DNA of 38,842 nucleotides, taken from assembly GCA_964503955.1 (NCBI GenBank), contig CAZDCG010000001.1:68962-107803 (forward strand), given 5' to 3'. Below the pieces are notes generated by a model. The model searched no databases. It was not told where the DNA came from and worked only from the letters and a program-made list of their open reading frames with translations. Origin of the DNA: an uncultured Gammaproteobacteria bacterium. GTDB lineage: Bacteria > Patescibacteriota > Patescibacteriia > VMEV01 > CAYQCH01. The position numbers and the translations under genes are program-made. This document shows positions 10,787-35,344 of the stretch, piece by piece. Positions within the stretch are counted from its first letter, which is position 1; each line of letters starts with the position of its first letter.

Positions 10787-11779
10787 CTATTTTGCTGATT
10801 TTTGCGATCTCTCGTGGATGGTGATAAGAAGCGGACTTGCAATGAAGATCGAAGAATAAGCCCCCGCCACGATACCAATGGTTAATGCTGCCACAAAACT
10901 CTGTATCGCGGTGCTGCCGACAACCAGAATAGCCACCAGAACAAGCATAGTCGTAAAGGAGGTAATCATTGAACGCGAGAGGGTTTGGTTCAGGGAATTA
11001 TTGACGGTTTCTTCAAAAGCACCGCCTCTTTTGAGCAAATTCTCTCGAATACGGTCGAAAATAACAATGGTGTCATTCACGCTATATCCAAGAACCGTGA
11101 GGATCGCCGCGATGAAAGCTACGTTCAGCTCCCACCCGTAAATATGAGCAAGGATGGCATAGACTCCAAACATGATGAAGACATCATGGAACAACGTCAC
11201 CATCGCGACTAAGCCGTACTTCCATGATTGCACCGGCCAGGACACCTTGCGGAACGCCCAGGCGATATAAAGCATCATGGCGATCAGTACAACCACAATA
11301 GCCAGAATAGATTTATTCTTCAGCTCTTTGCCGATAACCGGGCCGATGGTCTCAAACCGTTCTTCAATGAGCCTGTTTGCGCTATCAGAGCCTGATGGAG
11401 CCAAGCCAAGCTCAATGGTGCCCAAACCAGGTACTTCCTGCGAATCAATATTGGAGGCACTGCCGTCGTCACCGATTTGCTCGCGAAGCGCCTGGATGAT
11501 CGCTCGATGCTGCTCCTCTTCGATATTCACAAAGCGCAACAGATATCCGCGCTCACCAATGGACTGGATTTGCGCTGAATCAATTCCTTGGGATTTCAAC
11601 GTATCTGCAATCTGTGATGTTTCAGGACGTTCTTGTGTATAGCTGATTTCAAGCAAAGTTCCGCCTGTAAAATCAATTCCCGGCCGGATGCCGAAAATGA
11701 GAACGCCCAGCGCGCTGATGAGCAGAAGAAGCGCAGAGAGCAAATACCATGCTTTTCGATGTTTGGTTATTGACCACAT
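10787..11779 (-). CDS. secF: Protein translocase subunit SecF
   Basis: GIDFTGGT, ETIGPVIG, GYSVNDTIVIFDRIRE motifs. Confidence 0.96.
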   Translation of the reverse strand: MWSITKHRKAWYLLSALLLLISALGVLIFGIRPGIDFTGGTLLEISYTQERPETSQIADTLKSQGIDSAQIQSIGERGYLLRFVNIEEEQHRAIIQALREQIGDDGSASNIDSQEVPGLGTIELGLAPSGSDSANRLIEERFETIGPVIGKELKNKSILAIVVVLIAMMLYIAWAFRKVSWPVQSWKYGLVAMVTLFHDVFIMFGVYAILAHIYGWELNVAFIAAILTVLGYSVNDTIVIFDRIRENLLKRGGAFEETVNNSLNQTLSRSMITSFTTMLVLVAILVVGSTAIQSFVAALTIGIVAGAYSSIFIASPLLITIHERSQKSAK

Positions 11780-11783
11780 AAAG

Positions 11784-13886
11784 CTATCCTTTCAGGTTTT
11801 TTCCGCTTGTATAAAGCGGAGTAAATCTACGAATGAAAGACCAACCAAGCACAAAATCCATCAACGACTTCGTCACCACCATGGCGCTGAACATGCTGAC
11901 CATCACACCAAGCGCGAGCGTGACAGCAAACCCCTTGATAAGCGTGGTTCCAAACCAGGCCAGGAAGAAACAAGTGATCAGGGTAGAGATATTGCCATCC
12001 CGGATAGACGGCCAAGCTCGTTTAAACGCCAATGGAATTGCTTCAGCCAGCGCTCTGCCTCTGGCAAGTTCTTCTTTGAACCGCTCAAACACAAGGACAT
12101 TGGCATCAACCGCCATACCAAGAGACAGGATAAAACCGGCGATTCCGGAGAGCGTCAGCGTCACCCCGATAAACTTGAAGACCACCATGGTTGTCAGACC
12201 GTAAACAGCCAGCGCAAGCACGGCCAGCAATCCAAGCAGGCGGTAGTACAAAATCATGAAAACCGCGATAAAGATCAAACCAATGATCCCCGCTTTCATG
12301 CTCTTGGAAAGCGAATCAGCTCCCAAAGTCGCGCCCACGGTTTGCTGCTGCACAAGTTCAACCGTAATCGGCAGAGCTCCATCTTTTAAGCGGCGAGCCA
12401 AATCCTGTGCTTCTTCCGTTGAGAAATTGCCGCTGATGACAGCTTCACCGGTTGTAATCTGCTGCTGAACCGTTGGAATGCTGATTGCCCGGCCATCCAG
12501 ATAAATGGCAATTTCACGGTTTAAGTATCGCTTGGTCAGATCAGAAAAAATCCTGGTTCCTTCTTCGTCAAAGAGAATAGAAACTTGCGGAATCTGGGTT
12601 TGCGGAGAAAAAACGAGCTGAGCGTCAACCACATTCGCCCCCGTTAACCCTGTATTTTTCCATTCTTCCGCAGGCGGGAGAATATCCTCAGCCGTCTGCT
12701 TGTCGAATTGAATACGATGGATCGTAATCTGCTCGAACGGACGCTGATCCCGCTTATAGATCAAATGCCACCCGAACTCCGTTTCAACCGGTTCGGAAAT
12801 CTGTCCTACCTCAAGGGCTTTTGCCGCGGTTTCAAATGATTCAACGGTGGCTGCTGGAGCAAGCCATCCTAGATCCCCGGAATTCTGTGAAGCGGATGGA
12901 TCAGTTGAAAGCGTTTTTGCTTTTTCGCTGAAATTTGCCGTGGTGATTTCATTCGCGATTCCCTGAATTTTCGCCAAAGCTTCATCACGTGAAAGCTGCG
13001 AATCACAAGAAGCGGCACCTGTATAACAAATGAGAAGATGGCTAACGAGCATCTCGGTATCAGCAGCCTGCCGGTCATCCACGCGGACAATTTCGTAGGA
13101 ATTGTCGGTTTCAATGACTTGTGAAACAACGCGTCCGATACGGGTTGCACCGATTCCTTCCACCAGTTCCGGATGGGTGGCATTGGTGATCACTCCCAAA
13201 TCCCCGCCTGAATCACGAGTCGCCAGGTCTTCAGAAGTTTCTTTTGCCACGTCTTCAAATGATTCCTGGCCCGATGTCACGCGGCCATACGCAGCCTGCG
13301 CTTTTTCAAACTGTGTTTTGTTGTAGGCATCGATCTCCTGTTGTTCTTCTTCGGTCAAGGGACGAGGAGGTTCATTGTTCGGTTCACGGAATTCAAGTAC
13401 GGGGGTTTCCCCGATGCGATCGATGGCCTCGTCCACAGCAACGCCTGCTAATTCGACAACAAGGCGGCTATTTCCCGCAACCTGGACAAGCGGTTCTGCC
13501 ACGCCAAGCGCGTTAACACGGCGTTCAATGCGGTCGCGCAATCGCGCGATTGCCTCAGCAGCATCATCTTCAGGTCCAAGCTCTTCGATTTTCGCTTCGT
13601 AAACGAGGTGCGCTCCTCCCTGTAAATCAAGCCCAAGGTTGAACGGTTTTTCTGAAACCGTGTCGAATCGGTACCCTGAAACCAGCGGAAGCTTTGACAA
13701 TCCATTGTTGACGGAGCCGATCACCTGATTATACCCCGATGGATAAACCAAACTCGCACAAAAAACCGTCAGCAAGAGGATACCCAGCATACTCCAGCGC
13801 ACTTTTGCGCGTGGCGACGGATCAATGACGGCATTCCAAACCTTCTTGAACGGATGAGACAGCACCCTTTTCATTTTCTCAAACAT
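11784..13886 (-). CDS. secD: Protein translocase subunit SecD with two inserted parvulin (PpiC-type) domains
   Basis: LGLDLQGG, RRVNALGVAEP, VDANVLVFERFKEE; insert res ~171-407 with two F..A...S.D.....GDLG parvulin motifs and SEPVETEFGWHLI. Confidence 0.95.
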   Translation of the reverse strand: MFEKMKRVLSHPFKKVWNAVIDPSPRAKVRWSMLGILLLTVFCASLVYPSGYNQVIGSVNNGLSKLPLVSGYRFDTVSEKPFNLGLDLQGGAHLVYEAKIEELGPEDDAAEAIARLRDRIERRVNALGVAEPLVQVAGNSRLVVELAGVAVDEAIDRIGETPVLEFREPNNEPPRPLTEEEQQEIDAYNKTQFEKAQAAYGRVTSGQESFEDVAKETSEDLATRDSGGDLGVITNATHPELVEGIGATRIGRVVSQVIETDNSYEIVRVDDRQAADTEMLVSHLLICYTGAASCDSQLSRDEALAKIQGIANEITTANFSEKAKTLSTDPSASQNSGDLGWLAPAATVESFETAAKALEVGQISEPVETEFGWHLIYKRDQRPFEQITIHRIQFDKQTAEDILPPAEEWKNTGLTGANVVDAQLVFSPQTQIPQVSILFDEEGTRIFSDLTKRYLNREIAIYLDGRAISIPTVQQQITTGEAVISGNFSTEEAQDLARRLKDGALPITVELVQQQTVGATLGADSLSKSMKAGIIGLIFIAVFMILYYRLLGLLAVLALAVYGLTTMVVFKFIGVTLTLSGIAGFILSLGMAVDANVLVFERFKEELARGRALAEAIPLAFKRAWPSIRDGNISTLITCFFLAWFGTTLIKGFAVTLALGVMVSMFSAMVVTKSLMDFVLGWSFIRRFTPLYTSGKNLKG

Positions 13887-33889: not shown

Positions 33890-34089
33890 GATGCCGTCTT
33901 ATCAGTTCCCATAAACGGGGGCGGGACGTCATCTGTTCGAACCGAAAGGGGCATGCGGTGTTCTTCCTGAAAGGACGAATACCCAACTGATGTTGGGCTT
34001 TCGTCACCGCACAACTGAATCTCTCATGACTTCCGGTCACTGAGAGTCCTCCAAGGAGTGCGGTGACACCGCATTCCAAGGAGATTCTC
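33890..34089 (+). ncRNA. Candidate structured cis-regulatory 5' leader RNA (family not recognised)
   Basis: Multiple helices: TGCGGTG/CACCGCA, GACGAA..CCCAAC-TGAT-GTTGGG..TTCGTC, CTCTCA-TGAC/GTCA-TGAGAG, GGAGTGCGGT/ACCGCATTCC; ends at SD AAGGAG. Confidence 0.55.
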
Positions 34090-35241
34090 ATGGCCGACTT
34101 CATCACCCGTCGCATCAGCGCCCTGGTCAACCGCGTCAACAGCGCCATCCAGGGCCGCGGCCAGAACGAGAGGAAGGTGTCCGATGACCTGATCAACGCG
34201 GCCGCCCGCCTCGTGGAGCGGGCCAAGGCCGCCTTCACCCCGCTCGAGTCCAACGGCTGGGACATCGAGCAGAGCATCTACCAGCAGCCGATCGAGGTCT
34301 CGCACGAGGACCTCAACCAGTCCGAGCCCGCTCCCGTTCAGGAGCTGGTGATCGAGGCCACGGTCCCCGTTCTGGAGACCGCGCTCGAGCCGCCGGCTGA
34401 CGAGATCGAGGAGGAGGAGCCGATCGCTGAGACCGAGGACTCCGAGCACGACGAGGGGGTCTGCGAGATCACGACCGTGGTCATGCAGGCCCACTGCGTC
34501 CAGCGCAGCACGTTCCGCTGCGGGATGTGCGGCAGCACGCACTTCGGTGCCGACATGGTCGGCGCCAGGGTGAACGCGTTCGCCGCGATACCCAACGACG
34601 AGATGATCATCGCCAAGAGCGTGTGCAAGCACTGCTGCGACAGCGATGACTGGGGATGGCTCGCCGGCGTGATCAAGTACGCCGGCCACGCGCGCGCGAA
34701 CAAGCTCGAGCGCTGCGTGAAGCTCATGGAGTCCGCGCTCTTCGGAGACCCCGAGAAGAGCGACGCCTGCCGCATGCGGTACCTGGCCAACAACGACCAG
34801 CCCGCGCGCGCCCACAAGGCTCTCGAGATCCTCGAGCGCCTCACCGAGAACTGCAGCTCGCAGCCGACCGTCGAGAAGGACGAGCGGATCCGGCAGCTGC
34901 GGAACAAGGCGGAGCTCTGGGCCACCGAGCAGGAGGCCCAGCGGCTGGCGGGCAAGATCCGGCACCGGATCGAAGCGGGGAACTTCAAGCGCGCGTACAA
35001 CACGCTCAACGAGGCGCGCAAGCAGTTCCCCAAGCAGACCAAGTCCTGGGACAAGCTGGAGTCCGAACTCAAGGACGCCCAGTCCAGGACCGAGCAGGAG
35101 GAGATCATCGCCGACCTCCGCTCGAGGATCGCCAAGGCGGCCAGCAATGACGACACCGAGACGCTCGTCGCGCTGATCGCTCACGGAAGCAAGATCGCTC
35201 CCCATCTCGACTGGGAGCAGATCGCGCTCCAGGCCATGTAG
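34090..35241 (+). CDS. Orphan GC-rich protein: acidic linker, CxxC..CxxC Zn-binding region, helical/TPR-like C-terminus
   Basis: AAGGAG SD 6 nt before ATG 34090; 19 of the first 20 codons after ATG end in G/C; RCGMCGSTHF..VCKHCC. Confidence 0.85.
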   Translation: MADFITRRISALVNRVNSAIQGRGQNERKVSDDLINAAARLVERAKAAFTPLESNGWDIEQSIYQQPIEVSHEDLNQSEPAPVQELVIEATVPVLETALEPPADEIEEEEPIAETEDSEHDEGVCEITTVVMQAHCVQRSTFRCGMCGSTHFGADMVGARVNAFAAIPNDEMIIAKSVCKHCCDSDDWGWLAGVIKYAGHARANKLERCVKLMESALFGDPEKSDACRMRYLANNDQPARAHKALEILERLTENCSSQPTVEKDERIRQLRNKAELWATEQEAQRLAGKIRHRIEAGNFKRAYNTLNEARKQFPKQTKSWDKLESELKDAQSRTEQEEIIADLRSRIAKAASNDDTETLVALIAHGSKIAPHLDWEQIALQAM

Positions 35242-35344
35242 GGTTCAGCTCGCGAGGGCTGTTCCCGCTCCTGGAGATCGTCACCACCGACGGTCTCCAG
35301 GACGAAAATATTTTCATAACTATTTGTGAACATATTTTCGTTCC
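35241..35344 (+). other. Three consecutive hairpins after the orphan gene
   Basis: GGG..CAGCTC-GCGA-GGGCTG..CCC; CTGGAGATCGTC-6-GACGGTCTCCAG (35271-35300); ACGAAAATAT/ATATTTTCGT (35302-35311/35332-35341) with inner TTCATAA/TTGTGAA. Confidence 0.7.

Follow-up and report, generated by a model that had tools for sequence, protein, structure and literature searches.

A SecD of Patescibacteria with a predicted nested pair of parvulin domains, one of them circularly permuted, in its periplasmic P1 domain

Introduction

SecDF uses the proton-motive force (PMF) to swing the head of its periplasmic P1 domain, capture the emerging preprotein and pull it from SecYEG. Parvulin chaperones have been placed beside this same head. 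PpiD of E. coli, a membrane-anchored parvulin chaperone at the translocon (PMC9643414), photo-crosslinks to the SecD P1 head and acts cooperatively and non-redundantly with SecDF late in translocation (PMC7793623). SurA binds the holo-translocon, and AlphaFold docks both of its parvulin domains onto the P1 head of SecDF (PMC9987972); a peptidyl-prolyl isomerase (PPIase) lipoprotein of Mycoplasma crosslinks to SecD (10.1101/2024.09.05.611430). Here we describe a secD gene in a 38,842-nt stretch of a genome of the Patescibacteria (contig CAZDCG010000001.1; "the window" below means this whole stretch, and "the class" the class within the Patescibacteria to which its genome belongs). Its product carries two parvulin units within P1, an outer one (unit 1) that is predicted to be circularly permuted and an inner, complete one (unit 2) that would sit inside it. 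SecDF and the parvulin chaperones PrsA, PpiD and SurA are each well known.

The protein shares with the solved SecDFs of T. thermophilus and D. radiodurans (3AQP, 5YHF, 5XAN, 5XAP) its family, the order of first transmembrane segment (TM1), P1 base, P1 head and membrane domain, and a SecF partner; PMF-driven pulling is presumably shared as well. It differs in having about 237 residues, forming two parvulins, where those proteins have about 28 (residues 118-145 of T. thermophilus SecDF, TtSecDF). We know of no solved or described SecD with a foldase domain. Searches of the literature turned up neither a SecD-parvulin fusion nor a naturally circularly permuted parvulin.

PrsA, the lipoprotein foldase of Bacillota (4WO7, 6VJ4, 2JZV), is likewise an extracytoplasmic, membrane-tethered parvulin acting on Sec exports, and unit 2 resembles its PPIase domain. 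It is, however, a separate lipoprotein with a normal-order parvulin inserted in an NC chaperone domain, whereas in the window the tether is SecD and the host domain would be a permuted parvulin. PpiD (with YfgM) of E. coli is a translocon parvulin in contact with the P1 head, and unit 1 is nearest to its parvulin domain (2kgj), but PpiD is a separate protein with its own transmembrane anchor, a SurA_N-type domain and normal strand order, in contrast to the covalent link and absent chaperone domain of the window protein. SurA (1M5Y) likewise has an active and a degenerate parvulin domain in a single chain, and was matched by both Foldseek and phmmer; its P1 and P2 domains are nevertheless sequential and normal-order on an N/C core, with no nesting or permutation, and the superposition was poor (TMq 0.14, root-mean-square deviation >20 Å). 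Pfam gave no SurA_N, SurA_N_2 or SurA_N_3 match on the window SecD, and its parvulins are part of the SecD chain rather than a protein with its own anchor or a free one acting in trans. By these comparisons the insert is not a member of the PrsA, PpiD or SurA families, though it would probably work like them.

The SecD gene and its insert

The features of the gene that the following sections refer to are these.

11784..13886, minus strand: secD, 700 amino acids (aa) in one uninterrupted frame (Pfam SecD_1st, SecDF_P1_head, SecD_SecF_C and Sec_GG)
12666..13376, minus strand: whole insert, residues 171-407, NEPPRPLTEEE...DILPPAE, about 237 aa (translation)
13071..13352, minus strand: unit 1 body, residues 179-272, from the long α1 helix to β4, without the N-terminal β1 (Pfam, AlphaFold2 (AF2))
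12744..13055, minus strand: unit 2, residues 278-381, a complete normal-order parvulin with H283, D338, T369, H374 and C287/C294 (Pfam, AF2)
12702..12734, minus strand: tail strand EQITIHRIQFD, residues 385-395, putative displaced β1 of unit 1 (AF2 strand pattern, family pattern)
13377..13541, minus strand: N-terminal part of the P1 base, residues 116-170, ending in ...ETPVLEFREPN (Pfam SecD_1st, translation)
12366..12662, minus strand: P1 head subdomain, residues 409-507 (SecDF_P1_head at residues 411-507, profile positions 18-114)

The insert is flanked by PVLEFREP and WKNTGLTG and stands where the chain goes from the P1 base to the P1 head, between the equivalents of TtSecDF residues 117 and 146. 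The original prediction had placed an insert of this length between these two motifs, with two parvulin domains in it, the first lacking its first strand and the second complete, and both the translation and a search with the Rotamase profile bear this out. Unit 1 matches Rotamase (PF00639) at residues ~190-272 over profile positions 15-97 only (48.5 bits), and unit 2 at residues 283-379 over positions 1-96 (72.6 bits). The nearest solved relative of unit 1 by sequence is the PpiD parvulin domain 2kgj, while those of unit 2 are SurA and PrsA. In the AF2 model unit 1 has helices at residues 179-205, 210-217 and 239-245 and strands at 229-233 and from 263 onwards. Unit 2 has strands at 278-286, 338-342, 367-369 and 372-380 and helices at 300-313, 319-326, 332-335 and 349-357; with a full-length Rotamase profile match, a β-α3-β-α-β2 fold and the active-site residues given below it belongs to the parvulin family, and Foldseek aligned it to the PrsA PPIase domain 2jzv and to Pin1 with TM-scores of 0.82-0.83 normalised to the target (0.83 for 2jzv). 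Unit 1 has the parvulin fold if strand order is ignored, the place of β1 being filled by residues 385-395 (from the AF2 strand pattern, with partners inferred).

The protein as a whole is a member of the SecD family. From its N-terminus it has TM1 (about residues 31-47), then the periplasmic P1 domain, which holds the insert, and a C-terminal membrane domain. PF02355, PF07549, PF21760 and PF22599 all scored above cut-off, with Sec_GG at residues 80-98, SecD_1st at 116-170, SecDF_P1_head as listed and SecD_SecF_C at 509-676, and all SecD and Rotamase scores of the protein lie far above the curated cut-offs. The closest PDB match is TtSecDF (3aqp, E 1.4e-79 by phmmer), the top Foldseek matches are SecDFs, and residues 79-168 and 399-679 align to TtSecDF 30-117 and 146-425. 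The full-length AF2 model has a mean predicted local distance difference test score (pLDDT) of 90.7. The SecF partner expected of a SecD lies next to it in the operon.

10787..11779, minus strand: secF, 330 aa, 4 nt downstream of secD (SecD_SecF_C PF02355, E 1.5e-55; Sec_GG also matched)

A nested, permuted topology in the structural model

The AF2 model was built from a 54-sequence alignment and its secondary structure was assigned by DSSP. Over residues 261-400 the pLDDT is 93-98, and over the tail segment 95-96. Running through this region are two strands, E263-286 and E372-395, each 24 residues long and neither with a break or a turn. In the first, the last strand of unit 1 passes straight into the first strand of unit 2 (LVSHLLI); in the second, the last strand of unit 2 (GWHLIYK) passes straight into EQITIHRIQF. 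The absence of a turn from both strands prevents each body from closing with the strand next in the chain, and two strands of equal length running in opposite directions are the pattern expected of one continuous antiparallel ribbon. The register is consistent with such a ribbon, the two His positions of unit 2 summing to 657 (283+374) and the equivalent positions of unit 1 to 656 (265+391).

A single-parvulin SecD from Moranbacteria (P0120) served as a control. Its AF2 model (30 sequences; pLDDT 86-93 in the parvulin region) has a strand at residues 229-239, a six-residue turn and a strand at 246-255, and this β4-β1 hairpin shows that DSSP can tell a hairpin from an unbroken ribbon.

On this evidence the model strongly supports a circular permutation of unit 1, in which its body (179-272) would come first and its first strand (385-395) last. 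Likewise supported is the placement of unit 2 in the β4-β1 hairpin of the permuted unit 1, with EQITIHRIQF closing unit 1, so that β4 of unit 1 with β1 of unit 2, and β4 of unit 2 with β1 of unit 1, would form one long two-stranded ribbon linking both domains. The original prediction had proposed just this arrangement, one parvulin permuted around the other with EQITIHRIQF as the missing first strand, and it gains support from the contrast between the unbroken strands and the control hairpin and from the family pattern of the tail. That pattern is Y-x-[VI]-x-R/H-[IV]-[LF]-h, and the canonical ASHILIK or LAHILIT is kept at the same position in single-parvulin relatives and in the proteins at loci L008 and L012.

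Active-site residues and the question of a foldase

Residue conservation was counted over 54 homologues. In unit 2, H283 (β1), H374 (β4), S327 and T/S369 are each kept in all 54, and D338 in 42. H283, D338, T369 and H374 presumably correspond to H59, C113, S154 and H157 of Pin1, a correspondence drawn by motif and not by structure superposition. In unit 1 the residue equivalent to the β4 His (265) is His in none of the 54, with N, S, Y or E instead, and at the tail equivalent of the β1 His (391) there are 34 Arg and 7 His. The expectation that unit 2 keeps both His residues and that unit 1 is degenerate thus held. With its His pair and its Asp/Cys and Ser/Thr positions, unit 2 looks catalytically intact, whereas unit 1, judged by its residues, is degenerate, has lost both His and is not to be filed as an active PPIase. 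These residues also speak for the nested topology, because only the nested fold puts the invariant H283 and H374 in one site.

Unit 2 also has a pair of Cys residues, C287 and C294 (window 13005-13028, minus strand), in the β1-α1 loop, within H-[IL]-L-I-C-Y-x-G-A-x-x-C; each is present in 52 of the 54 homologues. The pair is also found in a SecD that has unit 2 only (L092) and is absent from the doubles of Peregrinibacteria. It may be an extracytoplasmic disulfide staple.

Taken together with the known systems, the module is likely a PrsA/PpiD-like foldase wired to the SecDF motor. The built-in parvulins would stand beside the substrate-binding P1 head, where unit 2 would isomerise prolyl bonds of captured chains and unit 1 would serve as a PpiD-like non-catalytic binding or pedestal domain; the pair would perform in cis the task that PrsA, PpiD or SurA carry out in trans. 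Unit 1 is most likely non-catalytic because both His are lost and its nearest relative is the PpiD parvulin domain. That domain (2kgj) is not known to have PPIase activity. The original prediction had called the gene a Rosetta-stone fusion, and this reading matches the published non-covalent contacts of PpiD (PMC7793623) and SurA (PMC9987972, predicted) with the P1 head.

It could be instead that the insert is no foldase at all but a structural spacer, an arm binding the cell envelope or a partner, or a regulator of P1-head movement that reuses the parvulin fold. The loss of the catalytic residues of unit 1 in all 54 homologues would fit this, as would the kinship of unit 1 to a PpiD domain that is not known to be active, and the site of the module where base and head join, from which it could influence the swing. 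The strict conservation of catalytic-type residues in unit 2 is hard to explain for a spacer, however, and both His are kept in most single-parvulin SecDs too. No further parvulin occurs in the window's own genome, and the surroundings of the SecD P1 head are a known site of action for parvulin chaperones (PMC9987972, PMC7793623). We therefore regard a non-foldase insert as improbable.

The statement about the genome rests on direct searches. The genome is 1.12 Mb in size and rated 100 % complete, and searches of it with PF00639, PF13145 and PF13624 found only the two SecD units and no other parvulin. A weak extra Rotamase_2 match proved to be ribosomal protein L1 and was rejected. A SurA_N_3 search of the same genome gave no significant match, and there is no free-standing SurA_N-parvulin gene there. 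The check that the original prediction had suggested, for absence of ppiD, prsA and surA, thus turned up no parvulin beyond SecD and no SurA_N-type chaperone in this genome. More widely, 41 of the 67 genomes of the class that bear the double architecture gave no second parvulin match with the insert as query; the fusion is often, though not always, the sole parvulin of its genome.

Side-by-side domains, strand spacing and natural variants

The same chain could also hold two ordinary, side-by-side permuted parvulins without nesting, the body of unit 1 closing with LVSHLLICY and the body of unit 2 with ITIHRIQF. The linear order body-β1-body-β1 is the product expected of a tandem duplication of a permuted unit, one relative (L008) keeps all four His motifs, and in Pfam the body of unit 1 scores slightly better with the canonical LVSHLLICY than with the tail. 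We nonetheless consider this arrangement quite improbable. AF2 shows no turn in 263-286 or 372-395, yet it shows the hairpin in the single-parvulin control, and side-by-side closure would leave two half active sites in 47 of the 54 proteins although H283 and H374 are invariant. Spacing argues in the same direction: from the β4 His position to the β1 His position there are 17-18 and 17 residues in 51 of the 54 homologues, shorter and far less variable than in the real hairpins of single-parvulin SecDs (20-34, from motif positions). The lengths of the two ribbon strands are so nearly constant that their correlation carries little signal.

Natural variants point the same way. In family f71 (L088 and the SecDs of three further genomes; 581-591 aa) the body of unit 1 runs directly into the tail strand (...GINIIKRLTAKAGDTTSTPKTYNVARIFFKTK...) and unit 2 is missing, so that these proteins lack exactly the first β1 and the second body of the side-by-side arrangement. 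Conversely, the SecD of genome G053 (L092, 553 aa) has only a normal-order parvulin with the Cys motif of unit 2 (ANHLLICYKGAVRC...FGFHLIYK) and lacks the body of unit 1 together with the tail. The tail strand thus shares the fate of body 1, being kept or lost with it. In a tree of 86 domain bodies, the unit 2 sequences form a supported clade (98/91), which includes the G053 parvulin, and the unit 1 sequences a weak one, with a backbone without resolved order; L088 lies deep within the unit 1 clade (support 100/96), which makes the f71 form a secondary loss.

Distribution

The taxonomic distribution, which the original prediction had named as a check, shows the fusion recurring through the class. 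With the insert region as query, 77 further protein clusters of the same Pfam architecture were found, with 36-62 % identity over the insert; the sources naming them say only "SecD", from Patescibacteria and Uhrbacteria, and among the names given to genomic loci with the long form are Magasanikbacteria, Uhrbacteria and Parcubacteria. The same double architecture is present in 67 of 201 genomes of the class. When the state of SecD was assigned in 101 genomes of the class, the counts were as follows.

One parvulin, permuted: about 61
Two parvulins, nested: 33
One parvulin in normal order: 1
None or unresolved: the rest

A faulty assembly or gene call, for example one in which a prsA-like gene broke up a secD or was joined to it, can be dismissed despite the unusual length of 700 aa (against ~430-530 aa in most SecDs of the phylum), since the gene is a single uninterrupted frame with flanking SecD segments collinear with TtSecDF, the AF2 model is confident throughout, and the recurrence of the architecture in independent assemblies from many sources (77 other clusters, 67 of 201 and 33 of 101 genomes) is neither chance nor an assembly error.

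In a set of 301 genomes from across the phylum, SecDs from outside the class mostly measure 430-530 aa and have no insert, with about ten exceptions; these include SecDF fusions of 1,030-1,090 aa that align across the parvulin insert. SecD-parvulin fusions outside the class are rare within the phylum. Two proteins of Peregrinibacteria (L017 and L019; 1,066 and 1,149 aa) join SecD and SecF in one chain and have the nested double with a very degenerate outer unit, and four further phylum-level matches (G256, G279, G447 and G358) resemble them in size and coverage. Another SecD (L022, 561 aa) has a Ser/Thr-rich low-complexity stretch, not a parvulin, at the same insertion site, and an extra hydrophobic segment in the membrane domain.

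The single permuted parvulin and the origin of the double form

The single-parvulin SecDs of the class (540-640 aa) follow the order LEFKE, a long helix, DF..LAK.SEDPGS...GGDLG..., FGYHIIKK, a loop, (R)ASHILIK and W.TGLTG, so that the motif with which parvulins normally begin comes after the one with which they normally end. The Pfam match covers profile positions 14-96; once the tail strand was placed ahead of the body, the match extended to 1-96 and the score rose from 77.4 to 79.3 bits. By motif order and profile match the permutation of the parvulin in SecD is real. A search with the single permuted form found 3,872 proteins at E ≤ 1e-3, of which the best 120 were all SecD with Rotamase, named only SecD. 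A permuted parvulin is not peculiar to the window gene but is what SecD of the class commonly has.

The single form, as in Moranbacteria P0120, shares with the window SecD the insertion site, the long α1 entry helix and a tail β1 leading into the W.TGL of the P1 head, so that unit 1 with its tail is the positional counterpart of the single permuted parvulin. It differs in keeping both His and closing with a β4-turn-β1 hairpin, whereas in the window SecD a whole second parvulin would occupy the hairpin and the outer unit is degenerate.

Free-standing, membrane-anchored parvulin proteins of 308-352 aa were seen in eight genomes of the same class (L096-L103). All eight were inspected: these SurA_N-parvulin proteins have the same β4-then-β1 order, ...GWHIILV, a loop, KARHILIS and a C-terminal helix, and Pfam on two of them (L096 and L100) gave SurA_N_3 and Rotamase from positions 11/12 to 96, followed by ARHILI or AAHILI. 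The permutation may predate the fusion to SecD. In SecD itself the single permuted parvulin, common in the class, is probably the older state. The double probably arose in one of two ways: the permuted unit was duplicated in tandem and its copies exchanged β1 strands, or the hairpin received a second parvulin. The double-parvulin SecD at L008 (L008:2968-5019), with all four His motifs (GYHVVK, ASHLLICW, GYHLILK and LAHILIT), fits the duplication. From these motifs it looks like a little-diverged tandem duplicate, and both of its units might be active.

Weight of the evidence

Our preferred explanation is that the gene is a genuine SecD whose P1 domain carries a nested two-parvulin module with a PrsA/PpiD-like foldase role and an origin from the single permuted form; we put its probability at about 0.7. 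Several points weigh against it. The AF2 model is a prediction from 54 related sequences, and strand partners were deduced from DSSP runs, lengths and conservation rather than from model contacts. Moving the tail in front of unit 1 in silico left its Rotamase match at 15-97 and raised the Rotamase_3 score from 39.7 to 42.1 bits, and a construct joining the body of unit 1 to the canonical β1 of unit 2 scored higher than this degenerate-tail construct, at 47.8 bits, because that strand is canonical. Two homologues have an insertion of 8-9 residues in one ribbon strand that is uncompensated in the other, so the inter-domain ribbon is not strictly paired everywhere. About 26 of the 67 double-bearing genomes have at least one further match to the insert query, some of which could be parts of one SecD matched separately. 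In any genome that truly has a second parvulin, the fusion is not a plain substitute for a free foldase. Lastly, the tree of domain bodies does not separate duplication from insertion as the origin of unit 2.

A more far-reaching joint reading takes the module to be coupled to the proton-driven swing of the P1 head, which it would enter from the base and leave into the head, making SecDF an energy-coupled extracytoplasmic foldase. It further takes the four forms (single permuted, nested double, outer-only and inner-only) as a natural record of permutation and nesting through tandem duplication with β1 exchange. As a whole we hold this to be unlikely. If it were true, each power stroke would hand a captured chain to an isomerase, and folding outside the cell would be driven without ATP.

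Other observations in the window and genome

An Rfam scan of the window gave no match. Positions 34000-35250 form a 1.2-kb stretch with a G+C content of about 0.63, against about 0.49 elsewhere; a 392-aa open reading frame (34063-35241, plus strand) lies within it, with long open reading frames on the opposite strand. This stretch may be foreign DNA. In another part of the genome (L085:2123-2920, near 160 kb on contig C1), the neighbour of ribosomal protein L1 is a multi-pass membrane protein of 265 aa that looks by eye like a short YidC-type insertase.

Implications

The recruitment of folding helpers to the exit of the Sec channel is debated, and the case for it rests on crosslinks and predicted complexes. 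A fusion kept across almost the whole class provides strong comparative support for the view that placing a parvulin next to the P1 head of SecD is functional, and it gives a single-chain object for structural and biochemical work. The natural variants that lack either unit are a ready series for studies of permutation and domain insertion. For small-genome bacteria with minimal chaperone sets, the fusion suggests that an extracytoplasmic foldase function can be kept by joining it to an essential machine.

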